Origin: Eledone cirrhosa
Taxonomy: Eukaryota
Length of the DNA: 64,000 nucleotides
NCBI GenBank assembly: GCA_964016885.1
Contig: OZ024742.1
Coordinates: forward strand, 239,754,001-239,818,000
Direction: 5' to 3'
Below are positions 19,068-54,830 of this stretch, one piece after another. Both the position numbers and the translations under genes were made by a program. How positions within the stretch are numbered: the stretch's first letter is position 1; the number at the start of each line of letters is the position of its first letter. Below the pieces are notes generated by a model that was not told the DNA's origin, did not search any database, and was given only the letters and a program-made list of their open reading frames with translations.

Positions 19068-20439
19068 CTGAAATGAAAGAACAGATATGCAAATTTGTAT
19101 GACATTCTGGCCGGCATGCTGACTTTGGAAGACAGAAAATAAGTGGTGAGCAAAGCAGTGAAGGGAGAGAGAAAGTATATGCATTATTCTATTCTTTAAT
19201 CCTTTAATACCAATCCGTCCAAAACCAGCTCTGGTTCTATGAAAAAAAAAACACACCCAATTTAAAGGGTTCCTATTTAGAACATAATTTTATATAAAAA
19301 AAAACTTTCATTACACCTATTATCTGAATAATGAAATAAGTTTATAATTTTAATAAATCCTTCCAAATTCTATGTTAATTAATCAAAATATAGTGTATTT
19401 CATTAGAGATCATCATCATCATCATCATCATCGTTTAACGTCTATCTTCCATGCTAGCATGGGTTTAGATATAGTAACAAAAAGGTTGAAGACTTGCAAA
19501 ATTAGCAAGCAAGCATAACATGTGTGCTGAATTAATCATGACACTGGGCATGTGTTTGTGGTTGCTGCATAGCTAACTGGTTAAGAAGTTTGCATCACAA
19601 CCATAAGGTTCCAGTTTCAATCTTACTGTGTAGCATCTTGGGCAAGTCATTTCACATAGCCTTAAGTTGACTCAAAGCCTTGTGAGAGAAATTGTTTGGA
19701 AGCCTATAGGATAGTCTGTACCTGTAATTCAAAAGGCCAGCCTTGTCACTCACTACTAAGAATTATGTTCATACATCTTTGGAATGTTCAGCGACTTACA
19801 CCACAATATAAAATGGCTTGCACCTATAATTCAAAAGACCAGCCTTGTCACTCACTATCACATGTTGAATCTAACTAAAAATTATGTTATGGGTTCATGT
19901 ATGCTCAGCTATTTACACTATACTTTAATTCAAAAGGTCAGCCTTGTAACTTATTGTGTCATGCTGAATCTCCCTGGGAATTAAGTTATGGTTTCACATG
20001 TCTGTGGAACACTCAACCACTTATACATTAATTTCATGAGCAAGTTGATTAAACAACTGGAACACTCATCGTTGAAACCAATGAAGATCTATTCCATTCC
20101 ATGTATAGAATGCTCAGTCACTTACAATTTCTCAAACAGGCTGTTCCGTTGATTGAACAATTGGAACACTCATCATTAAAACCAACATATTTAATCCTTA
20201 ATGGCCTGTATCACATGAAACTGCATCAGTGAGACATTATTGAAAATCTGACTGCATTACATTAAGAATTAATGAATTAAAGAATATCTCAAATGTTCAT
20301 AATAATCTGTCCACTAATAAAGACACTAAACATTTGAATTAACAAGTACATTGAGATATTTTCAGCTAAATCCGAAAGGCCCTTAGAATAATGTTACTTG
20401 ACAGAGTGTGTAGCTAGATCAGGAAGTTGCTCCAGGTAG

Positions 20440-20700
20440 AGCTGCTACTTCTCTGAATTAGGAGATCACAGCTCCAATATTATGGGCAAAACCAACTGGC
20501 AGGAGACCAGGGGATAGACACTGAGCAATGCTAGGATAACATCCAAGAGCTCAGCTGGTCTCGTTTGGGCATCCAACTGGATTAATTGGAGATGGTTGCT
20601 TCTTACAAGACCAACTGGAAAGAATGTTTCAGGACTCTTTCCCCATGACCCTCTCACAATAAGTGGGGAAATAAGTGGGAAAAGAAGAATCATTTCAGGA
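20440..20700 (+). mobile_element. Highly degenerate LINE 3' fragment
   Basis: GRRPGD...DNIQELSWSRLGI-like remnant of an RTE C-terminus. Confidence 0.5.
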
Positions 20701-21789
20701 TGCTAAGAGCTAATTAATGCATTTCAAGTGAACATGACAGATTGTAATCTCCACACATTGTTTTATGAGGCAGTGACAGGAAAGGCCACTAAACATGGAT
20801 ATTAACATCAAAGTCTGCTTGAATCAGCATTAAACTGTCTCTTTAAAAAATCCCAGCAAACAGCATCATTAAGAAGTCTTAAGTACTTCAAACACCCTCC
20901 TCCTTCGGGAGAAGAGCAGCATTGTATATGCTGATTAAGAGAATGTGGTGGCAGGTTAATTTATGCTTCACATACATTATGTATTCTCTTTCACAACAAT
21001 AAAATTATCTAAACACACACTGTCTCTCTTTTCTTTTATGCATATATGTATACATAAAATGCATGTGTATGTATGTGTGTGTGTATAGAGAGGGTGTCCA
21101 TATAAATACACACACACACAGATATATAATTGTGGGTGTGTGTGCACGCTTGCTTATTCTGTTAGGGTGTCAGGCTTAGTGGTTAAAGTGTTCAGCTTAC
21201 AATTGTGATGTGGCATGTGTCCTTGAGTATGACACTTTATTTCACGTTGCTCCAGTCTACACAGCTGGCAAAAGATGAGTTATATTTGTATTTCAAAAGG
21301 CCAACCTTGTCCCAAGGTAGCCATGCTCAAAGAGTGAGAATGGATGTAAGGAAGGTGGCAAGTCATACACACAACTGTTTTTTCCTGAGTCCAGTTAGAA
21401 GGGCCTGTGGCCAAGCAGGAAGAGAGGAAGGTGAGCAGATATTGACATGAAAACATATTTTTATTTATAGCTTTAAAGAATATGTTCAGTGAGAGATTTC
21501 ATTTGAAAAAAGTTGAAACACTATATATTTTAGTGAAATCTCATCTAGCATTTATCAAACCCACACACACACCATTTCTATCTATTTGATTCATTCTTTC
21601 TCACAGTATTTCTCCAAGATGTTCTTATTTTGTGTGTCTGTGCATATGCACACACATGCAAGACAGGTCATTTCTCTCTTAAATTATTATATACATCTTA
21701 GTGCCATAATGTTATATACACAGATACAACATTTATATATATATATATATAACCAACTTTTCACTATCTTATTAATTTATTGATTTAGA

Positions 21790-22260
21790 CATGTTGGCTG
21801 ACAGCTTATGATGGGAGCAGAACTATTTGATTTCTAATCTCCTGCCATCACCTAAATTTATAAACCGGTGGCTGGTCAGGGGACAGCATTGTATCAGATC
21901 CCAGTTGCTAATCACTTTACTGTGTCAGCCGTCACAAGTAGTCTTAGCCGGCATGGACTGGAGTCGAATTCTGTCAATCGATTGGTTATTGATTAGGCGA
22001 TACCCGCTGATGAAGCCACATGCGCCGATTATGCACTGTTGCATAATATATGCAGACAGAGGGTGTGGTGCACCCTACTGCTGAATTAAGTGTGGCCGAA
22101 ACTCGAGTTCGGGAACTACTATAGGTACCCGTTTACGTGTGTTGTATTGAAGTGAATAACTATGTGTATACTTTGAGAGTGTACTTTACATTACTTATTG
22201 AGTACGCTGAGATGCAACCAGTCCTAGCATTGATACATATGCTGGGTCCGTCAACTTCTT
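21790..22260 (+). mobile_element. CpG-rich, about 470-bp non-coding element carrying the hammerhead (putative Penelope-like pLTR or retrozyme)
   Basis: GC/CpG-richer island between TA microsatellites, containing the hammerhead; no recognisable coding motif; boundaries approximate. Confidence 0.5.
22003..22113 (+). ncRNA. Type I hammerhead ribozyme motif (Penelope-like/retrozyme style)
   Basis: Stem I CCCG(22003)/CGGG(22110); core CTGATGA 22007-22013; stem II GCCACA/TGTGGC; GAAA 22098-22101; palindromic stem III ACTCGAGT; triplet GUU. Confidence 0.72.
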
Positions 22261-23878
22261 ATATATATATATATATTTAGAGAGATAGGCAGAGAGGAGT
22301 ATATGGAAGTATTTATATTTTTATATAGGATAAACATACATAATTCTTCTCACTGTGTGAATTTTATGTAAGCTGTGATAATCTCACAGATACCTCAGTA
22401 ACCGTGTAAGGATGCTAAAAACTAGTATTTCGGGACCTTTGTCCATCATCAATACTGAGATAGATAAGCTGATAGATTATATGTAGAATTTTGTACACAT
22501 GAGCGTGTGCATCCCATGTTCAATCAAGGATAGTTACAGTTAGTAAGGTACTCAATTTCCTGTAGAAGCCATTTCTATATTAAATATATATATAGATATA
22601 CACACACATACAAGTAAATTAATTTTCCAATTTACCTCTGAATCAACTAAGAAAATAGCAGTTAGTGAAGTTAGCTGAAGATTGAAGCAGTTACTTAATG
22701 CTTCCAAGAGTTTTTAATGTTAAATATAGTTAAGGTAGTGCTCAAATAGCTGGTGATATATAAGATGCAGAAGTGCAATATCTATAGACATTAGAAATTG
22801 GAGTTGATCTTATTGAAAGCAGTATTGCTTTGACATATTGACAATAAATTAGTCATAAGCTATGCCATTCTCACATTGTTTAATTGGAATATTATCTTTT
22901 TAAGACAGTTAAGCTATTTGGATAAATGGTTAGGTGTTTAGAACAGTATCATAAGCGTGTGAGTTTGATTCCTGGTTACATGTTGTGTCCTTCAGCAAGA
23001 CATTTTATTTCATATCGCTGGCAAAAATTAGTTGTACCTGTAATTCAAAAGGCTAGCTTTGTCACAATCCCTCTGAGAATTACGTTAAGGGTACACATGT
23101 CTATAAAATGCTCAACCACTTTTATGTTAATTTCATGAGCTGCTCAAATGTTTGGTGCACAACCGTAAGGTTGTGAGTTTGATTCCTGGCAATGTACTGT
23201 GTGTGTCCTTGAGGCTGCTCCAGAATACTCAGCTGGCAAAAAATAAGCTATACCTTTATTTCCAAAAGCCAGCCATGTTTCACATACTGTGTCACACTGG
23301 AATCTTCCTGAGAATTATGTTAAGCATGCACATGTTAATTCAATGAGCAATGTGTTCTATAGATTAAATAGCTAGAAAACTGATCATCGGAAGCAATGAA
23401 GATCCGACAGTCTCAAAGACAAACTTTGATTTATAGTAAACTATTGTCTGTGTTTGTGCCAGTGCATGCACAAGTGTGAATATGTACACATGCATCTATG
23501 TGTATGTCTGTGTACCTAAATAAATGTAAGAACCAAATGATGATAGATGAGAATGTGACAGAATACATTTAAGAATATTAATAATAGAATGTTGTTCAAA
23601 CATATAAAAAGTATTTCATTAAAAAGAAAATTGTATTTACTGAAAACTGAAGTTTTTCTGATTCCATCCAGTATTAAATAGTTAGAGAAGAAAATATAGA
23701 TAGGAGTTATTCCTGAAAGACTAGCAATAATGTGTGTGTGGGCCTTTCTCATTCAATATATATATATATAAAACATCATCATCGTTTAATGTCTATCTTC
23801 CATGCTAGTATGGGTTAGACGGGTTTGTCCCATTAGAGGCAAGTTGGGTTGGGTAACCATGCCTTGCTCATATAGGAC

Positions 23879-23914
<36 letters not shown>

Positions 23915-25159
23915 TATATATATTGAATTGGATTACTAACTTTTGCCAAATTTTTTAACAGAGCATATAAGCCAAATAAATGGGCATCAGCATGCATGGG
24001 AATCAACCCGCACCTCTTATTTTCGATTCCCACTGAAACTGATGCATACTTTTTCCATTCTGGGCTCTTATACACCTTATTTTCTGTAGTAAAAAAAATA
24101 ATGCCAAAGTTACTAATCCAATCACCATCTTCTAAACATGTGAATTATACATACACACATATTGAATTATTTCATTCTATATTAAATAAAATTGTTATAG
24201 AAGGTATTTTACACCATTATATCTTCATTGTGCTGCTATTGGTCTTCTCATGTTTCACTAGCCAGCCAACACTAAATGTGTATGTATTATTAGAAGATAT
24301 GGCAAGCCCGGACAGGCATTTCCAGTCAAGTGGTGTGCATGGCTCATGAAGTATATTGTTAGCTTAGCATCCAGGCATTGTCAAAATATGTTAACCTTTA
24401 GATATCAAATTGCCCGAAACCACATCTGTTTCTCTAACACAAGACCATTTATTTTAAAGAATTTATATTTATCATCATTATTTTATCCCGCCGGGGTTAA
24501 TTTTGCCTTTCATCCTTACGGGTCGATAAAATAAAGTACCAGTAATACACTGGAATAATTGCTGGCCTTGTGCCAAAAGTAGAAACAGTTATTTTATGTA
24601 AGGAAGTTTTGTTAAGCTATGTTCTAAACCCCTAGTTTAATAATGAGAAAATTAGTTATTTGAAAATCACAGGCAGTGTCTTTCATGAAAAATATGGCAT
24701 GGAAAGTGTTAAGTTCTTATCATTCTATCAGGGTAACTAAAAGGGTTGCTATCAGAAAGGGAATCTGGGTTTAATGCATTGCTTCAAAAACACCCCAACT
24801 GTCTTGTTTTAAAGACAGTAAGCTGGTCTGTGTACTGCAATTTACATCCATCCTACACCAAAACAGAAATGCTAGTTTTAACCCTTTTAATACTAACCTG
24901 CCCCAAATCATTTCTATTTCTACGAAACAAAACCATCCATTTCAAAATTTCCAATATAATTTTATATAAGAATATTATGTTATGTCACCAATGCCATCTT
25001 AATAAAACTTACCATTAGGATATTGCTTTAGTTTTTTTTATCAGATAACACTTATCATTTAATTCTCTCTAACTATATAAAGTGGATATGAATGGAAAGT
25101 GCAGACAGTTTGTTAAAGAATGGCAGAAGATAAATATAGACAAGAATTATATATATATA

Positions 25160-26044
25160 CCGGGTGCGGACGATATTTGTTCGCAATTTTCAACTGCTAA
25201 TTTTATGCAATTTTTTTTTCCTTCCGTTGTCACTCTTGTCTTCATAAAAAGAGTGACTATATTTCCATTATTTATTTTCAAAATAATTGATTATGAATAA
25301 TTTTGAACCTCCAAATTTGTGGAAGAGACAAGGAGTCCTTCTTGGAATCCGCGCCGGGAGGACAAATAAGGAAATTTCAGACTTTCCCAGAACAACAGGT
25401 GGCTCGCTGTCTCATCCAAAGACATGCCCAGAGTCATGCAGACAAAGTTTCCAGCGACAACATTGGTCTTAGGTGTCGTCAGCAGTCAAGGTGACGTCAC
25501 GCCACCTCACTTCTTCCCTGAGGGCCTCAAGCTGAACACCGATGGCTACATCCGCGTTCTGAGCGAGATAGTAAAGCCCTGGATCGACCAGGTAGCTGCA
25601 GGTAGGCCGTACGTGTGGCAGCAAGACTCAGCGCCCTGCCATACCAGCCGAAAGACCCAAGCCTGGCTGTCAGAGAACTTCGTCGACCACACTTCACCTG
25701 ACATCTGGCCTCCCAGCTTGCTTGACTGCAACCCCCTCGACTTCTTTATGTGGGGCGCAGTGGAACGAGACACCAACAGATCTAGCTGCAATACGAAAGA
25801 CGATCTGAAGGCCAGGATCACAAGTGCCTTTAGGGCCCTAAGACAGTGACGCAGGCCTGTAGCCGGTTCCGAGGCCGCCTTGGGGCCGTCATCAAAGCCA
25901 ATGATGGGTTTATCGAGTGAGATCGAAAGAATAAGTCATGAAGACAAACTGACCCAAGTTTGATAAATAAATCTTAAAAAATAAAACTACTGTGTTATTT
26001 TTTCCTAGACAGTAATCTTGCGAACAAATATCGTCCGCACCCTG
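25160..26044 (+). mobile_element. Internally deleted Tc1/mariner DD37D (maT) transposon, copy 1
   Basis: TIRs c(c/a)gggtgcggacgatatttgttcgcaa and ttgcgaacaaatatcgtccgcaccctg, TA flanks; WQQDSAPCH...WPPS..DCNPLD with 37 residues between the last two Asp. Confidence 0.93.
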
Positions 26045-26156
<112 letters not shown>

Positions 26157-27964
26157 CACCAAAAGAGAAAAAAAAATAGAATATATAAAAAATATTAAGA
26201 TAAAATTAAGTACCAAGTAACACAGAAAAAAAAATTCAAAGGAAAAATAAAAAAAAATAGGAAATGGACAAAGGATAAATCCATTAAAGTTGGCATGCTG
26301 CTTTACTGAAATAAAGGATTCCATGAAAAAAAAAAGGAAACATTTGGAAGAACAATGCATATACAGACAGGTCTTGGAACACAGCAGGTGTTACAAAATA
26401 ATAATAATAATAAATATATACACTGTTGGGAATCTTTAACGATGGGAGCAAATATTAAACAAGGAAGGAATACAAAAGTAAGGAAAGGAAAGCAGACGAC
26501 TGTCAGATCGAACCAAGGAAACTTTGTCTTGTTTTCATTGGTTGTTCACAACTCCTGGCAGAAGGAGCAATGTGAAATAAAATATTTTGATCAAGAACAC
26601 ATGTGGGCCTGGTGCAGGAATTGAACCCACAAGTTTATAACTGTTGGTTCAACATCCTTACCACAAGGCCACATGCTTTCACAAAAAAATAAAAAAATAA
26701 AAATAAAAATAAATGAATAAATAAATAAACATCTAGATTTTTGGGAACCTTTAAAGACAGAAGGAAATAATAAACAAGACAGGATTATAAAGCTTCTAAA
26801 ATATATCCATTCCAAACCAATTCAAATTATTAAAACATAAATAGAGGGGAGGAAATAGGCAATTATAAAATAAAATAAAAATTAAAATAGGAAAGAAATC
26901 TATATTAATTAACTAAAAAATAAAAAAGGATAAAAAACTAAAAAAAAATTAAATTAAAATAAAATAAAATAAAAAAAAGGATAAAATAAGATAGGATAAA
27001 ATCAAACAAAATGCAATTTGCAATAATGAAAATATATACACATGCTTCATTAGGGTTTACAATCTATATAAATTAAAAAGGTAATTAATGGTGAAACAAA
27101 AAAAAGAAAAAGAAAACCTCAGATAAAAAGCCAGAGGATGTGAAAATCTGATGTAACAAGTACAAATGAAGAATTTAAATTATTAAATAATGAGTAAGTA
27201 GAATGATCATTGAGAGAAGGAGGGGTATCAGAAAAAAAAAAATCAATGAAAATGCTAGCTGTCAAGGACATCCATTATATATAGGAAACTCAGGGTAGAG
27301 GATCTACATGAGTTGCCATTGATATTTGTAATCAAGGTAGTTTTTTCCTAAAGTCAACCCTTCTGATACCAACTCACTTTCAGAACCGCTTAACCCTATA
27401 GTTTCCAATCTGCCTGAAACTGTTACTGGTTCTATGATATGACGCTATTTATTTTAAAAACCTTCCATCATAATTTCATGTAAGAACTTTCGCTAAAGCA
27501 TGTTCCAAACACCAGCTTCATAATAAGAAAGATATTTATACGACTAAATCTCTTCAAATTCTTGTTTATTTTCAAAATTATTTGAAAATTATAGGCAGTG
27601 CTGTTCATTAGAAGTATAGTGGGTTAACAAGGGTTTTGTCCAAAGGGACCAACATTTTCTTTCTCATAATGAAATTCTGTAGATGTTTAAAAGCTACAGT
27701 AAATTCTAATTTATTCATATTTGAGATATAGTAATAATGAACACATGTATACAGAGACATGTGTGTATAATACATATATATTTATCCTAGCTTTGTTGTT
27801 GACCATAAATACTATTTACATAAATGAGGTTGAAGGCATATTTATCAAACATATATTCAAATTTTATCCACACACACATACATACAAACATACTCTTTCT
27901 CTGCTAATGAGAAAACTTGGTGCTGTATCTAGAGACATTCTAATACACATACATACATACATAC

Positions 27965-28002
<38 letters not shown>

Positions 28003-29373
28003 AGTAGCACTAACATGGCATAGTTCATAATAGAATTGTATATGAAGGCAAATACAGTATGTTTATGTATAATAAACATACAAGAACTTCACTATGAATA
28101 TTATAAAACTGTGATCATGTCACAGCTATCTCAGTGGCCATGTGAAAATGTCAAACGTATTTTAGATGTTCATCCATCATCAGTGACATTTACTCATTTG
28201 GTAATGAGAGAAGAATAAGCTATAGCATATACACAAGAGTCCAGCTACGAATATTTTAGCTGCATGAAAACGGCAGAAATGGCCAAAACCAGTTCCGCTT
28301 CTATGAAATACACCTATTTCAAATGGTTCCTATTTCAATTAAAATCTCCCAACATAATTTTATATCCAAACAATATGGTAAGTAATGAAATAAGTAATAA
28401 TTTTAATAAATCCCTCAAAATTATTCATAAATGCTTTTGCTACCAAGTTACTTGAAGCTATATCTGGTTCTAAAATAATAAACTATTTGTTTTAAAGTAT
28501 TTTATATTTATCTAAAAAACCATCCATTATAATTTTATGGAAAATATTTGGTAAGATATGCCCCTCATACCAACTTAATAATGAGAAAGCTGGTTATATT
28601 ACGAAATCCTTGTTGATCATTTTCAAAATTCTTTGAAAAATGTAGACAGTCATCATTAGAAATATGGTTTATACTTACAGTTTACAAAAATTTGCCTAAC
28701 ACTAATGTTGGAGAAAATAATCCTACCACCCAAAATTCAGGATTATATAAATATGGCATTTCTTTTTTTAGACTAACATTATTTTGAGAGGAATTGAAAA
28801 GAGATCAGTGTTTCACATGAGAAATGAAGAAAAATAGATAAATAAATTTTAAAAAACAATCAATACATATATATATAATATATATGTATTGTTAAAGACA
28901 ACTATTTTTGAGTTTCAGTTTCTTCTGGTATTTTCTAACAAGACCTCAAAAGTGTTTGTTTAGAACCATTGAGTTCCTACGTCCATAATTTAATCAACAT
29001 TTCCAGAACCTCACAACCTCATCATGAAGAGTGTTGTGGGTTTATTCTTACTACAGAGAGACCCTATTAGAAAACATGAGAAGTATCTAATGAAGGAATT
29101 GAAACGTAAAAATAGTTGTGCCTTTAATAACACATGTATAAAAGAAAAGCTGTTCCCCATATATATAACCCACATATCATAAAACAATGGTGCCAACAAC
29201 AGCTAACAACAAATAGATGGCAGATGGTGACAAGGAGGCAGTGTAGAATTTACCAGAATTGATATATCATGTGATGGGATATATAAATGTGCATATTTAT
29301 ATATACACACAAACATATAAGCTTATACACACACACATGTGCATGCATGTATGTATGTATGTATGTATGTATG

Positions 29374-29430
<57 letters not shown>

Positions 29431-29564
29431 AGAAAGAGAGAGAGATTTTGAAGGTGGGGCTTCAGTGTCGCCTTAGTTGATGTCTAAAACTTACTAATGT
29501 ACACACTCATGCTCACATACACACACAATTATATAGATAAACAATTGTATGCATATGTATATAT

Positions 29565-29634
<70 letters not shown>

Positions 29635-32232
29635 ATGTGTGTTATCCCATACAGACACACACTACAATCACACTAATATATAACCCCTCCTCCTAAATTC
29701 TTTGCATTGCAGGGGCAGTAGGTAACAAAAGTGATAGAGAATAAGTTTTCTAGTCAGACAAAATATTGGATAGAAAATAATACAAAAAATAACAAAAGCC
29801 TGTTAAATGTGTGTTACAACACAATTACATAAAGGCTGAACAGGTCCACCTCCCATTTTTTTTCCTTGGTGAAAGAACAGAAACTCAATGCTGGAATCAA
29901 AAGGCATCTTAGTATACAATAGGATTGTAAAATTTAACACAACTCTATTTTTCTGAGAATTTACTTTATACTATTTTCAGACCAAGCTGCTTGAAACAAC
30001 TTCTGGTTTTAAGATACAACACTGTTTATATTATAATTTGTAACAGCATGAAACAGGCATTACCAAGCCATTCTTAAAAAGTACAAAGCATTACATTAAA
30101 AATTGAAGTCTTTAATGCAATACTGCATATTTTTGCAATAATCTATCCTCCAGTATAAGATACTATAAATATTTGAATTAACAAACTAATTTTGTAGATA
30201 TTTTCAGTTAAACCATTACAGTATGTTAAGAGTTTATATTCATTAAAAACATTCCATCATGTAAGAATCTTAAGTTATATTCCAAACACCTGCTTCATGA
30301 TGACAATGTTATATTATTGCTAAATCCTACTAAAGTTTGGATTACTTAAAAATCATAGAAATTTAATAATTGAAAGGTTAAAAATATTGGATTATTTAGA
30401 TTATTTGTAATAAAAAAAAAAAACTAAAAATACTGAGAAACCTTTATATAGTATCAAGAAAGGAAATATAAGGATTAACTTCATAGATTCTAGAGAGATT
30501 AAAAAACACACGATGTTCTAAAATGATAGATTGATGACAGATAATATATATCTTTACTGATTTTAGTGCAAAACACATGTACTTGAAAGTATCATCCAAA
30601 CTGATGTAAACTTCAATATTATAGATTGTTGAAAATATTAATTCAACAATTTTTTTCTCCAGCAGATAGCAAACAGCAAATATTTTAACATTTTTTGATA
30701 CTACTACTACTACTACTACTACTACTAATCATCATAGCCTACAAAACCCAGGATTCACTGTAGAACATTGATCAATATTTCAAGTCTGATTATAAACTAG
30801 CATCTATCAATCTATCTATCTACAGAGCTAGTATTTCTTGTTTGTAATTTGAAAGTTTCCATATAAGAACATTTAAAATTAGTTTTGTTTATGAAAGTAA
30901 TTGAAGATTAATAAATACATAGATCATTTATATCTGGGGCAACTATATGTAAAAAAATGTACAATGTATGTCTTATTAAGATGCACATAATCATTTAAAG
31001 TCTGTTTGCAGGGGTCATCACAGAACAAATCAGTATTTCACTGACATTTCAAACAGTCAGTTTCACTTACATACATTCCTACTCTATGAAGTGTATTGGG
31101 TGTGTTTTATCATGGCCCCTGTCCTAGAGAGGTTGTCAGGTCTTTGACACAAATGAAGAGTCCTCTCAACTTGTTGTTTGGCAAGGTTTCTATGGATGGA
31201 TGCCCTTCCTATCACTAACTACTTCAAGGAATGTACGGCGTGCATTTTATCATCCAACCCATGCCAGCATGAAACGGGCATACAATGGAGATGATTATGG
31301 TGATGATGGTCCACATTTTCAAAATAATTAAAACCAACAGTGGAAAAAAAACAAAATTCAAGTAGCTAAGAGAAGCAATATTATCTAAATACAATCTTAA
31401 AGAGGAAAACCTCTTTGCATTTTAATCAATCAATCAATAAATGAAAGATCAGTTTGAAAAATTAAGGAAATAAATGTGGTTTTAGGTGTTAAATTTGTTT
31501 ACAAAATTACATAGAAATTTAATTATTATTGTTAAGTAGAACAAATGAGTAAAAGGTAGCAGCAACATATAGGAGACTTAACTGAATGAGATATTTATAA
31601 AATTGTCAACAACCCAAATTATCACCATTTATAACTAATGAGATATTTCTTATGTGGCATTTAACTCTTAACATCCTGTAATGATTTAGCCGAAAATGTC
31701 TAACAGGTTTGTTAATTAAAATACTTATAGTATCTTTACTACAGAGTGTTGTGAACAATTTGCAGTATTATCTCTTAACATCCTGTAAACATTTAGCAGA
31801 AAATATCTAAAAACAGGTTTGTTAATTCAAATATTTGTAGTAACTTTACTAGAGGATAGATTATTGCAAAAGTTTGCAGTATTAAAGTTTTCATTTTTAA
31901 TGTGATGCAGTCATAGTGCTGTCTTGTACTTTTCAACAATGTCTTACTAATGCAGTCTCATGCGGCACAAGCCATTAATAGTTGGATTTCTCTATATGCA
32001 TTTGATATTCTTAATCCCAGCATGAGTTTGTGCAAAGCAGCAACAAGCATAAATATTTCTCAACAATTCTACAAATACTTATAGCAAGAAGATGGACATA
32101 GTGAAAGAAGAGGCAGTGGGGGTGTTAGGTGTGTCTAAGGGGAAAGTAAGACCATAGCAACAAGAAAACAACAGGTACAACAAAAACTATGGCAATGTGG
32201 TTTTTTTCAGAGTCTGGCATATCCAGACTTAC

Positions 32233-41160: not shown

Positions 41161-41367
41161 ACCCATAGATGTTTATACAACACACATACACCACTGCCAT
41201 ATATACAGAAGTATATAAGCTCATACATCACTGCCATATGGTGTTTACTAATACATCTTTACCATATGTGTATACAAACACTTATACCACTGACATTATA
41301 TATATATATATAATGTGTGTTTGTGTATACACATATATCAGTGCCATATATATATATAAAGACTTGT

Positions 41368-43396
41368 TCTAAATAGAACTACTGTGACAGTAATATCTGC
41401 ATACGCGCCCCAATCCGGACTGCCTGGCGCTATAAAAGACAGATTCTATGAGACACTGATGCTCACTACCTCCCAAATAACCGACAGTGACTATATAATT
41501 ATTGCTGGCGACCTAAATGGCCACGTTGGACAACATTGTGACGGCTATGACGGAATCCACGGAGGCTATGGGTTTGGTACTAGAAACGAGGAAGGCTCCA
41601 GAATCCTGGAATTCTGTGATGCAAATAACCTAACTATCTGTAACACTAACTTCAAAAAACGAGACAATCACTTGATCACCTACAGATCAGGGGAACATAC
41701 CAGCCAGGTAGATTATATCCTTACCAGAAGACGTGACAGAGTGTCTGTTGTAAACACTATATCCCTCCCCCATGAAGAATGCACCTCCCAACATAGACTG
41801 ATAATTAGCGACCTCATAGTCAGGACGAGACGTACTAGACAGCAGAAGAGGACTATCCTCAGGAGAAAAATATGGAAGCTAAAGGACTCCACAGCCAGAA
41901 ATAAATTTAAAAGCATATTACTTGATGCTTTCGACAGTAAGGAAGAGCAATTAGAGTCGTACAATATAGAGGAACAGTGGGAATTCCTGAAAGCAAACCT
42001 GCTGATGGCGGCGGACAAAGTCTGTGGCTGGAGCAGGCCTGTAGGCAGGAGGAGAATAACATGGTGGTGGAACAGTAAGGTGGAGGAGTCAATTAAGGCC
42101 AAAAAGCAGGCTTGGAAAGTATGGCGGGATGGGGGAAGTAGAGAAGACTATCAAGTGGCCAGGAGGGAAGCTAGGAGACAAGTGTACTTAGCAAGAAGGG
42201 AAGCAGAGGAAAGAAAGTTCAAGCATGTTCTACAACGCGAGGACCAAAAACGTGAGGTGTTCAGGATTGCTAGGCAATGTGTCAAGGAAAACCGTGATAT
42301 TGTCGGGGAGAAGTGTGTATTTAATGATGATGGCATACTTGCCATCACTGACGCTGATAAGAAGGTAGCTTGGAAGTGTCACTACGAAAGGCTACTAAAT
42401 GAGGAGAATAAATGGGAGAAAGACAGTCTCCCCCACATCGACCCAATAGAGGGACCAGCAGTGTTAGTCGTTCCATTATCTGATGGGCTCTTAGAAAACT
42501 AGGTGTTGATGAATGGCTTGTGAGAGCTATACAAGCCATGTATAAAGAAACAGTCAGCAAGGTTAGAATTAACAACGAATATAGTGAAGAGTTTAGCGTA
42601 GAAGTTGGTGTTCATCAGGGCTCTGTTCTTAGCCCCCTACTATTTATTATTGCCCTTCAGGCTATAACAGTGGAGTTCAAGACCGGCTGCCCATGGGAAC
42701 TCCTATACGCAGATGATCTAACGCTCATAGCTGAATCAATGGCCGAGCTAGAGAAGGAATTCCAAACATGGAAGCATGGCCTAGAATCAAAAGGCCTTAA
42801 AATTAACCTGGCTAAGACTAAAGTTCTAGTTTGTAGGAAAGAAAATAAGGCGCCGGTCCCTTCCGGGAAATGGCCATGCTCGGTGTGTAGGAAAGGCGTA
42901 GGTAGAAACTCCATTTTATGTCCCAAAAGCAAAGTATGGGTGCATAAAAGATGTAGTGGGATCACAGGTAAGCTAACTAAGAACATAGATTTTACATGTG
43001 GCCGGTGCTCTGGTGCAATAAGTAGCAGCAAGTGCCCACAAATACTAGCTCTTTCAATTGCGCAGATGGTTCTATAGAAATAGTGGACAGCTTCCGTTAC
43101 CTGGGTGACAAAATCAGCAGTGGGGGAGGGTGCTCTGAAAGTACAGTAGCTAGAGTCAGAACTGGATGGAAAAAGTTCAGAGAGCTTATACCACTATTAG
43201 CCGCTAAAGGGTTCTCCCTAAAAATGAAAGGCAGGCTGTATGATGCCTGCATACGAACAGCCATGTTGCATGGCAGTGAGACCTGGGCATTGTGTGCAGA
43301 GGATATACGCAGACTAGAGTGGGAAAACTCCCGTCCAAACCATGCAAGCATGGAACATTGACGTTAAACGATGATGATGATGATGATGATGATGAT
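41368..43396 (+). mobile_element. RTE-clade LINE, internally deleted (APE endonuclease C-terminus, partial RT, PHD-like finger, 3' tail)
   Basis: ISAYAPQ, GDLNGHVG, SQVDYIL, SQHRL (APE); GVHQGSVLSPLLF, YADD, FRYLG (RT); deletions near 42477 and 43320; catgcaagcatgg...(GAT)n tail. Confidence 0.93.
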
Positions 43397-44335: not shown

Positions 44336-46965
44336 TTCCACAATGCTTCAAGCAAACAATCACAAAGTCTTGTCAATGACCTCACGGTCAGAACTAGACG
44401 AACCTGGAAACAGAAGCCAACCTGGAGAAGAAAGCTCTGGTAGCTGAAAGACCCCTCAGCCAGTAACAGATTTAAAGATATTTTAATCAACGCCTATGAC
44501 AGTAAAGAAGAACAGATAGAGACATTCAATGTAGAAGAGCACTGAGAGTTCCTAAAAAATAACTTACTAAAGGCGACGGAAGAGATCTGTGGCTGGAGTA
44601 AGACCACAGGCAGGAGGAGAGTGACTTGGTGGTGGAACAATAAGGTAGATGAGGCAGTTAAGGCCAAGAGACAGGCATGGAAAGAATGGAAGAACGGGAG
44701 AAGCAGGGTACATTACATAGAGACCAGGAGGGAAGCTAGGCGACCAGTATACTTAGCTAGGAGGGAAGCAGAGGATAGAAAACTCAAGCATGTTTTGCAA
44801 CGTGGGGACCAGAAACAGGAGGTGTTCAAGATTGCGAGGCAGTATGTCAGAGAGAATTGTGATGTCATTGGAGAGAAGTGTATCCGGAATGATAAAAGTG
44901 AGCTTGCCCTCACAAGTGCTGAGAAGAAAGATGCGTGGAAGAGCTATTATGATAGATTACTAAATCAGGAGAATGCATGGGAAGAAGAGACTCTACTCCA
45001 AGTAGACCCTATAGATGGGCCAGCAGTACAAGTCAGCAGCAGCGTAGTAAGTAAAGCAATCAAAGATATAAAGACGGGGAAGGCAACCGGTCCATCAAGT
45101 ATAGCTGCCGAGATGCTGAAGGCATCTGGGTCGGTAGGTCATGCCATAACCACATGTATTGTTAACCATGTAATACTAGAAGGTGTCATACCAAAGGATT
45201 GGTGCAGTAGCATCAACAAAGGTAAAGGTGATGCACTAGATAGAGGAAACTATAGAGGTATAAAGCTGATGGACCAGGTCATGAAAGTAACAGAAAGAGT
45301 TATAGCACAGTTGATTAGGGACCGAGTGAAACTAGATGAGATGCAATTTGGGTTTGTGCCAGGAAGAGGCACCACTGATGCCCTCTTCCTTATGAGGCAG
45401 TTACAGGAAAAGTACCTAGCTAAAAGTAAGCCATTCTATCTGGCATTCATCGATCTCGAGAAAGCCTTTGAGTCGGCTCTTAGAAAACTAGGAGTAGATG
45501 AATGGCTTGTGAAAGCTGTACAAGCCATGTATAGGGGAGCAGTCAGCAAAGTTAGGATTAGCAATGAGTATAGCAAGGAATTTAGCGTACAGGTCGGTGT
45601 CCACCAGGGCTCTGTTCTTAGCCCTCTCCTGTTCATCATAGTCCTGCAGGCAATAACGGAGGAGTTTAAGACCGGATGCCCATGGGAACTCCTGTATGCT
45701 GATGACCTCACACTTATAGCTGAATCTATGGTAGAACTAGAGAAGAAATTCCAAACTTGGAAGCAGGGACTAGAAAGAAAGGGTCTCAAAGTCAACCTGA
45801 CAAAGACTAAGGTCCTTGTAAGTAGACGAGAAAACAGAACCCAGATCCCCTCAGGGAAATGGCCTTGCTCAGTATATAGGAAAGTTGTAGGTAGGAACTC
45901 CATTCTCTGCCCCAGATGCAAACAATGGGTACACAAGAGATGTAGCGGGATCTCAGGAAGCTTAACTAAGAATGTAGGCTTCACATGTAGCAGCTGTGCT
46001 GGGACAGCTAGTAGCAAACAGCCACAGGAAACAAGTACCACCAAACTCTGGGAGGGCTCTGTAGAAACAGTAGACAGCTTCTGCTACCTAGGTGACCGAA
46101 TTAGCAGCGGAGGTGCGTGTTCGGAAAGTACAATAATTAGGGTAAGAACGGAATGGAAGAAGTTCAGAGAGCTACTGTCACTGCTAGCTGCAAAAGGCTT
46201 TTCCCTCAAAATGAAAGGCAGACTGTACGATGCGTGTATACGAACAGCAATGTTACTTGGTAGTGACACCTGGGCGCTGTCTGTGGAAGACTTGCGTAGA
46301 TTAGAAAGAAACGAAGCCTGCATGCTCCGATGGATGTGTAATAGTAATATACGCGAATGGCAAAGCATAAATGAATTGAGAGAGAGACTGAGCATAAGAG
46401 GAATCAAATGATGTGTGCAGGAGAGGCGGTTGCATTGGTATGGACATGTGATGTGTATGAAGGATGACAGCTGTATAAAAAGGTGCAGAGCACTAGAAAC
46501 CGCGGAGTGGGGAGACCCAAGAAGACCTGGGATGAGGTGATAAAAGCCGACCTTACCCAATTACACCTCTCAAAGGCGATGACACATGCCGTGACTTCTG
46601 GCGTCACACAGTAATACAGAGTATTACATGGTTACAAGCTGAAGCATATAGACAATATGCCCCCACACCCTCCCACTGCAAGGTGGTCGTGGAAGTGCCA
46701 CGGCAAAAAAGCACCCAGCCCACACTGTAAAGTGGACATGTAGGCGCCACGGAAAAAGCACTTGAAGTGCCACGGCAAAAAAGCACCCAACACTCACTGT
46801 AAATGAGGTTGGTGTTAGAAAGGGCATCCAGCTGTAGAAATCAAGCCAGAATCAGTTCCCGTATGAGCAAGACAAGGTCAGCCGACTGGACACTGCCCAC
46901 AACAGGATAACACGTCTAACGCATGCTAGCGTGGAAGAACGGACGTAAAACAGTGATGATGATGA
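44336..46965 (+). mobile_element. RTE-clade LINE, 5'-truncated; 596-aa RT ORF with small deletions, 3'UTR and (GAT)n tail
   Basis: NYRGIKL, QFGFVPGRGTTDA, FIDLEKAF, QGSVLSP, YADD, FCYLG; 3'UTR with tandem gtgccacggcaaaaaagcaccca units. Confidence 0.95.
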
Positions 46966-53990: not shown

Positions 53991-54830
53991 TTACACAATT
54001 GCCATCTACCACAGCTGTGGTAAACAATACTTCCACAGTTGCTATCTAACACAGCTGTGGTAAGAGAGACTTTCACAGTTGCTATCTACGGCAGCTATAG
54101 TAAACCATACTTCTATAGTTGCTATCTACCAAGGCTATGGTAAAACATACTTCTACAGTTGCTATCTACCCCAGCTATGGTAAACAATACTTCTACAGTT
54201 GCTATCTAACACAGCTGTGGTAAGAGATACTTCCACAGTTGCTATCTACGACAGCTATGGTAAGAGATACTTCCACAGTTGCCATTTACTACAGTTATGG
54301 TAAGAGATACTTCCACGATTGCCATCTACCACAGCTATGGTAAGAGATACTTCCACAGTTGCCATCTACCACAGCTGTGGTAAGAGATACTTCCACAGTT
54401 GCCATTTACTACAGCTATGGTAAACAATACTTCCACAGTTACCATCTACCCCAACTATGGTAAGAGATACTTCTACAGTTGCCATCTACCACAGCTGTGG
54501 TAAGAGACACTTCTACAGTTGCTATCTAACACAGCTGTGGTAAGAGATACTTCCACAGTTGCCATCTACCACAGCTGTGGTAAGATATATTTCCACAGTT
54601 ACCATCTACCCCAACTATGGTAAGAGATACTTCCACAGTTGCCATCTACCACAGCTGTGGTAAGAGATACTTCCAGTTGCCATCTACCACAGCTGTGGTA
54701 AGAGATACTTCCACAGTTGCCATCTACCACAGCTGTGGTAAGAGATACTTCCACAGTTGCTATCTACCACAGCTGTGGTAAGAGATACTTCCACAGTTTG
54801 CCATTTACTACAGTTATGGTAAACCATACT
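53991..54830. repeat. 40-bp minisatellite, about 21 copies, with internal 16-bp palindrome
   Basis: Unit ttccacagttgccatctaccacagctgtggtaagagatac, in register for about 840 bp. Confidence 0.97.

Follow-up and report, generated by a model that had tools for sequence, protein, structure and literature searches.

A type I hammerhead fold with a branched stem II in a dispersed non-coding repeat, probably a non-autonomous Penelope-like element, of Eledone cirrhosa

A type I hammerhead fold lies in a truncated copy of a protein-free repeat within the stretch of 64,000 nucleotides of Eledone cirrhosa DNA analyzed here (the window). The explanation that we favor, and consider reasonably probable, is that the repeat is a non-autonomous Penelope-like element (PLE) moved by a Neptune-type reverse transcriptase (RT), and that its ribozyme is off during copying. 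The branched 84-nt stem II is a variant architecture of the type I hammerhead. The family itself has no earlier match, and is of a known kind.

The copy in the liprin-alpha intron

The features of the window copy are as follows.

19068..32205, minus strand: liprin-alpha intron hosting the copy, between homology-defined exons; further small exons within it are possible
21734..21750: (TA)n at the 5′ junction, the target microsatellite
21749..22261 (about), plus strand: 5′-truncated copy, positions ~344-859 of a ~860-bp non-coding, probably non-autonomous Penelope-like unit, subfamily A
21980..21994, plus strand: conserved GATTGGTTATTGATT segment, candidate promoter element of the pLTR from pattern counts and subfamily comparison
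22003..22113, plus strand: type I hammerhead fold, with CCCG/CGGG as stem I and CUGAUGA and GAAA as core; cleavage predicted 3′ of the GUU, after 22109
22014..22097, plus strand: 84-nt stem II domain; a 7-bp stem with an A.C (or A.A) mismatch at its base, opening into two arms at a three-way junction
22028-22047, plus strand: stem II arm 1
about 22050-22086, plus strand: stem II arm 2, with C>A at 22084 in the window copy
22101..22108, plus strand: palindromic stem III ACUCGAGU, able to pair in a dimer (self-duplex -10.7 kcal/mol)
22110..22131, plus strand: competing hairpin CGGG...CCCG, predicted to sequester the 3′ strand of stem I
22223..22246, plus strand: 3′-terminal hairpin just 5′ of the fixed 3′ end, candidate start signal for RT
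22260..22277: (TA)n at the fixed 3′ end

The GATTGGTTATTGATT segment is what we take to be a reverse CCAAT-like motif. Minus-strand exons of liprin-alpha lie on either side of the hammerhead, at 32430-32206 and 19067-18981, which places it in an intron and antisense to its host, as a first-pass annotation of this DNA had proposed; the best named full-length matches are from molluscs. That annotation also described a CpG-rich island between TA repeats; the composition is as it said, with 4-5 CpG per 100 bp compared with 1.0 window-wide, but the island is the repeat copy itself.

The liprin-alpha intron is merely the insertion site. There is no partner hammerhead and no second copy of the element in the 64-kb window, and the window copy is probably inert, a lone, decayed, antisense intronic insertion with no evident importance for liprin-alpha. 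Its intact core inside the intron could suggest co-option for regulation of the gene, by antisense RNA or by intronic cleavage. We regard this as very improbable, since the copy is one among thousands of dispersed copies, differs by 8-13% from the copies closest to it, lacks another hammerhead in the vicinity and carries a private change (C>A at 22084) that breaks arm 2. Being antisense, the ribozyme would moreover be unable to cut the liprin-alpha pre-mRNA.

Other repeats are present in the window. Two decayed LINE-like endonuclease/RT frames of 380 and 621 codons, presumably RTE-like, lie antisense in liprin-alpha introns (41360-43361 and 44546-46411, plus strand). A fragment at 25370-25849 (plus strand) resembles a Tc1/mariner-type DDE transposase, and 53994-54822 is a 40-bp minisatellite of about 21 copies.

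The repeat family

A genome search with 21780-22262 gave 3,238 first-look candidates, so the sequence is not single-copy; the 40 that were scored (the window itself aside) are 87-92% identical. Exact patterns, whose counts are lower bounds, gave at least 621 matches for the hammerhead and at least 1,354 for the 3′ end (0 and 1, respectively, in controls), and at least 1,042 for the GATTGGTTATTGATT segment upstream of CTGANGA (0 in the control). Here 2/40 positions differ between subfamilies. There are three of these (A, B and C), 20-30% apart, each 4-9% decayed from its own majority.

The full unit is ~860 bp and non-coding. Its longest stop-free frame is 108 codons, and comparison with 550 translated frames from PLE loci gave no match to PLE protein. 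A short Cys-rich frame runs through the motif; a coding role for it was rejected, as neither its length nor its sequence is kept across subfamilies. Copies have a sharp common 3′ end and scattered 5′ ends, indicating random 5′ truncation, and contigs of one sample echo a higher depth at the 3′ part of the unit. (TA)4 is found at the 3′ end of 95/112 distinct copies and at the 5′ end of 54/112. The terminal hairpin has undergone a compensatory change from C-G to A-U in 19/26 subfamily B copies.

A full unit is often preceded by a 5′-truncated copy of its own end, joined via (TTA)n. There are 99 such head-to-tail junctions (1 in the control), and an upstream partial repeat precedes 15 of 90 insertions in a sample drawn by 3′ end. 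In 32 or more of these partial tandems two hammerheads lie ~860 nt apart. No long tandem arrays were found in stretches of 2.5-3 kb, with at most two junctions per locus, and the inverted 5′ pieces that are typical of many PLEs occur at only 2/88 junction loci.

Near the start of the unit a GTAAGT donor, a pyrimidine tract and an AG acceptor are kept in subfamilies A, B and C. Donor and acceptor are both present in 62/293 loci (duplicates included), and none of the 293 has a clean junction. As a putative intron, this segment would agree with the introns that some PLEs retain. In loci L003, L008 and L012 a common deletion of unit positions ~19-124 has removed the putative donor and kept the acceptor.

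The family thus has a pLTR-plus-unit partial tandem, a fixed 3′ end, variable 5′ truncation, a hammerhead inside the terminal repeat, AT-rich microsatellite targets and no RT or endonuclease reading frame. The first-pass annotation had suggested a non-autonomous Penelope-type retroelement, and we think it very probable that the element works in this way.

The hammerhead motif

The motif comprises CCCG (22003-06), CUGAUGA (22007-13), A22014, C22097, GAAA (22098-101), the palindrome ACUCGAGU (22101-08), the GUU triplet (22107-09) and CGGG (22110-13), with GCCACAU (22015-21) pairing with GUGUGGC (22090-96) in stem II. All the letters named in the first-pass annotation are in place. With a type I descriptor that tolerates a long stem II, one match was obtained in the window and none in 100 doublet shuffles. 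The sequence has the CUGANGA and GAAA core, NUH triplet, three stems and open stem I of a type I hammerhead. By contrast, the covariance-model check that had been proposed was negative, as Rfam models gave no hammerhead at E<=10 in the window.

The pair 10.1-11.1 at the base of stem II is absent, and is replaced by A.C or A.A in all subfamilies. The A.C mismatch noted in the first-pass annotation is present, but is not special, because other PLE-type hammerheads of the same genome have U.U or A.A at this place, and U.U has been reported here for active ribozymes (PMC3088659, PMC7229834; these and the papers cited below are drawn on for the portions available).

Conservation of the core was compared between subfamilies A and B, which were retrieved by BLAST only; core counts for C are biased, because C was retrieved with a pattern that contains it. 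Between A and B the core and stems I and III differ at 1/28 positions compared with 115/741 elsewhere, which is not significant (Fisher p=0.10), and the whole motif at 9/111 (p=0.043). The single core difference is N17, which is U or C in A and A in B. N17 is U, C or A in 79 of the 81 copies with a letter there, and G in the other two. Self-cleavage of the family's hammerhead after the NUH triplet is predicted.

The branched stem II

The branching of stem II described in the first-pass annotation is borne out by comparison of copies, and the hairpins that it placed at 22028-47 and 22060-76 are both present. For 48 copies, hand-picked from at least 88 extracted, 91.6% of cells are paired in the fold. 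Changes on both sides of a pair occur in 36 cells, compared with 15.6 in shuffles (0/500 reach this value), while the number of pairs with such changes is not above shuffles (7 compared with 5.6; 115/500). The compensatory changes trace to about three events that arose independently. Stem II of subfamily C has G-C in place of A-U, a branch of C has A-U in place of C-G, and arm 2 of subfamily B has A-U in place of G-C.

We found no report of a branched natural stem II, or of this family, in the literature searched; Repbase, Dfam and supplements lay outside the search and may list the family. In the available portions of three papers (PMC6765202, PMC13725137, PMC7761336) stem II has lengths up to about 8 bp, and no branched form is described. 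Motifs with a long branched stem II may be undercounted, because Rfam and short-loop descriptors miss them.

Folding of the monomer and dimer

The active monomer is calculated to lie 5.5 kcal/mol above the best fold if the RNA ends at 22114, and 9.8 kcal/mol above it once the downstream hairpin is included. The probability of stem I exceeds 0.3 in only 2/48 copies. Two molecules of 22000-22114, allowed to cofold freely, give a double-hammerhead topology (-89.1 compared with 2 x -38.3), in agreement with the earlier suggestion that the palindromic stem III suits dimers. Double hammerhead is the best dimer fold in 11/48 copies without the 3′ hairpin and 0/48 with it; in the longer 5′ context of this test the window copy does not form it.

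The second UACCCG (22126-31) noted in the first-pass annotation is present, and the hairpin that it forms had been put forward as an on/off switch. Three G-C pairs of this hairpin are kept in all subfamilies while the loop varies, but covariation of the competing hairpins is not above shuffles (394/500), and it is one of three competitors. Given the folding of monomer and dimer, and a hairpin that is kept without covariation, a switch is plausible as a prediction. Overall, the calculated folding favors inactive hairpins.

Copy ends and the predicted cut site

If the transposed RNA were cut by the hammerhead, copies might be expected to end at the cut site. Taken in positional order, 90 insertions were sampled by their 3′ end. 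The terminal cut site is reached by 59 of them, and all 59 cross it, which places the 95% upper bound for a cut template at about 5%; this sample includes two likely duplicates and one rearranged insertion. Besides the 59, the copy at L283 starts about 6 nt past the terminal cut, by inspection.

The upstream repeat could be measured at 76 loci (among 88 of the 99 junction loci). It stops short of the cut site in 40, crosses it in 32, and starts at unit positions 700-710 in 4, so the upstream site is crossed in 32/36 cases. The 4/36 starts compare with about 2 expected by our own estimate (p~0.14); two of these keep some sequence 5′ of the cut, and the others begin 1 and 3 nt past it. Neither terminal nor upstream repeats thus show a pile-up of ends at the cut site above expectation. 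The five TA-joined starts near the site all retain GTY before the cut. Starts near unit positions 559-563 may be breaks in the alignment of C with the A reference, which leave the crossing counts unaffected. Upstream repeats reach back to unit position 201, beyond the candidate promoter segment, and show no sharp 5′ boundary.

The cDNAs cross the predicted cut sites, and the transposed RNA was therefore either uncut or re-ligated. The first matches the Anolis PLE, for which an internal RT start, an uncut RNA substrate and protein-assisted cleavage are reported (PMC11167929). The second fits the read-through equally well, which counts against our favored explanation, and comparison of pLTRs with their own units did not separate a circular from a tandem template. 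A retrozyme would work in this second way: tandem transcripts would self-cleave, the ~860-nt monomer would be circularized, and RT starting internally would round the circle to give partial tandems of more than unit length. Passage through both cut sites without a stop, and upstream repeats running past the candidate promoter to position 201 without a hard limit, are as expected for this. A circle has been proposed for PLEs (PMC4209133) and circles have been shown for mussel retrozymes (PMC7229834). We nevertheless consider this explanation unlikely, though the most serious competitor, in view of the lack of long arrays in the stretches read, a monomer predicted to fold inactively, and the Anolis PLE, where cleavage is dispensable and no reads ending at the site are reported (PMC11167929).

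The lack of cut-site ends could also mean that the hammerhead is catalytically dead, its fold being retained for binding or packaging by a borrowed PLE protein or through overlap with the promoter. The 10.1/11.1 mismatch, the short stem I of 4-5 bp, the several competing hairpins and the lack of an obvious contact between loops I and II point the same way, and 8/9 dimers of Xenopus retrozymes were uncleaved in vitro (bioRxiv 10.64898/2026.07.22.740005). Against this, the catalytic letters are unchanged over subfamilies that are 20-30% apart, N17 has moved only among cleavable letters, and the 22000-22114 dimer is predicted to adopt the double-hammerhead topology spontaneously. A vestigial ribozyme therefore seems improbable to us.

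The search for an autonomous partner

The first-pass annotation suggested looking for linkage to RT and GIY-YIG reading frames, and none was found among the loci sampled. The search covered 30 GIY-YIG loci and 20 long-ORF regions (one overlapping), 50 being sampled of at least 150 loci. Neither these nor the 88 junction loci contain an autonomous element sharing sequence with the unit; the best shared stretch at the GIY-YIG loci is 66 bp at 71%, in reverse orientation (E=0.002). Two other searches were also negative. A short-stem-II pattern gave 8 matches that are deletion copies or unrelated, and no alternative body is common to the fifteen junction loci with interrupted bodies.

Elements that combine RT with GIY-YIG and have the Neptune CX2-5CxxC linker are numerous in the genome. 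At 2/88 junction loci the repeat is joined in the sense orientation to a Neptune element represented by its truncated 3′ part, from a different Neptune family in each case, and the remainder of the unit is absent over 7-8 kb. These chimeras are a weak hint of template switching by a Neptune RT, later deletion being the alternative.

Loci L121, L123, L124, L125 and L133 (G000) hold Neptune-type PLEs with RT plus GIY-YIG frames of up to 938-1096 codons, and hammerheads near them often have U.U or A.A at 10.1/11.1. A repeat family of ~460 bp, unrelated to the present one, also carries a type I hammerhead (L122:8010-8919; G000:C5:100722009-100722918). The 50-nt stem II domain of that hammerhead does not branch and has U.U at the base; by eye, the L121/L122 family apparently has a UUGAAAA core variant. 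The L122 family is young (93-97% identical; 2,364 first-look candidates), forms tandems and inverted truncated copies that all end at one position, and would suit a cleavage assay better than the window copy. A short tandem repeat with a period of ~510 bp at L131:9068 and 9579 carries a minimal type I hammerhead.

Discussion

An earlier suggestion that the element might be undescribed may hold for the family, for which no report was found, but not for its kind, which is already described (PMC7229834; bioRxiv 10.64898/2026.07.22.740005). Animal retrozymes of 51-972 bp have been argued to be non-autonomous PLE derivatives (bioRxiv 10.64898/2026.07.22.740005), and the ~860-bp unit lies within that range. 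Like the metazoan non-LTR retrozymes, the family has a non-coding unit containing a single type I hammerhead, whose stem III is a weak palindrome, and it co-occurs with Neptune PLEs. It differs in consisting of dispersed 5′-truncated copies and pLTR-plus-unit partial tandems rather than arrays, in its branched 84-nt stem II and intron-like segment, and in unit length (860 bp compared with 170-400 nt for the retrozyme circles shown).

The hammerheads of PLE pLTRs are reported to have a short stem I, a stem II of 7-8 bp, an extra nucleotide after position 9, a palindromic stem III and low activity (PMC4209133). The present motif shares with these and with PAc (PMC11167929) a stem I of 4-5 bp, a 7-bp stem II, the extra nucleotide after A9 and the palindrome, together with a place in the terminal repeat, upstream of where RT has its fixed start, and insertion into AT-rich targets. 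Unlike them it has A.C or A.A where a G10.1-C11.1 pair would lie flush with GAAA, a two-arm junction replaces loop 2, and the element has no RT/GIY-YIG ORF. The terminal hairpin before the fixed end resembles the stem-loop at which RT starts on the Anolis PLE (PMC11167929).

Non-autonomous pLTR elements and microsatellite targeting have also been reported (PMC8557442). The Chlamys elements (e.g. MRC1) and Neptune PLE targeting resemble what is seen here in pLTRs, head-to-tail insertions and microsatellite bias. The Chlamys elements are, however, mostly without hammerheads, and their 3′ ends are common to a known autonomous family (PMC8557442), whereas no partner sharing the 3′ end was found among our 50 GIY-YIG loci.

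In our favored explanation, a partial tandem would be transcribed from its upstream repeat, and a borrowed RT/GIY-YIG protein would nick (TA)n. Copying would begin at the (UUA)n run that follows the terminal hairpin of the uncleaved RNA. The competing hairpins would hold the monomer inactive, and cleavage would be slow, needing dimer pairing via ACUCGAGU or the help of a protein.

A more speculative reading, which we think doubtful, is that of an intron-bearing ~860-nt Penelope-dependent retrozyme. The branched stem II would dock the borrowed RT, and RT binding or dimer pairing would switch on the ribozyme, in opposition to the conserved competing hairpins, to generate an RNA circle. Such a circle would explain cDNAs that cross both cut sites. 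If true, the hammerhead would be a natural example of switching by a protein, and the element would belong to a broader group of mini-PLEs with long stem II in this genome.

For the role of hammerheads in PLEs, where two models stand, the family provides a natural test. Across hundreds of copies the transposed RNA was uncut or re-ligated, yet the catalytic letters are fixed across three subfamilies.
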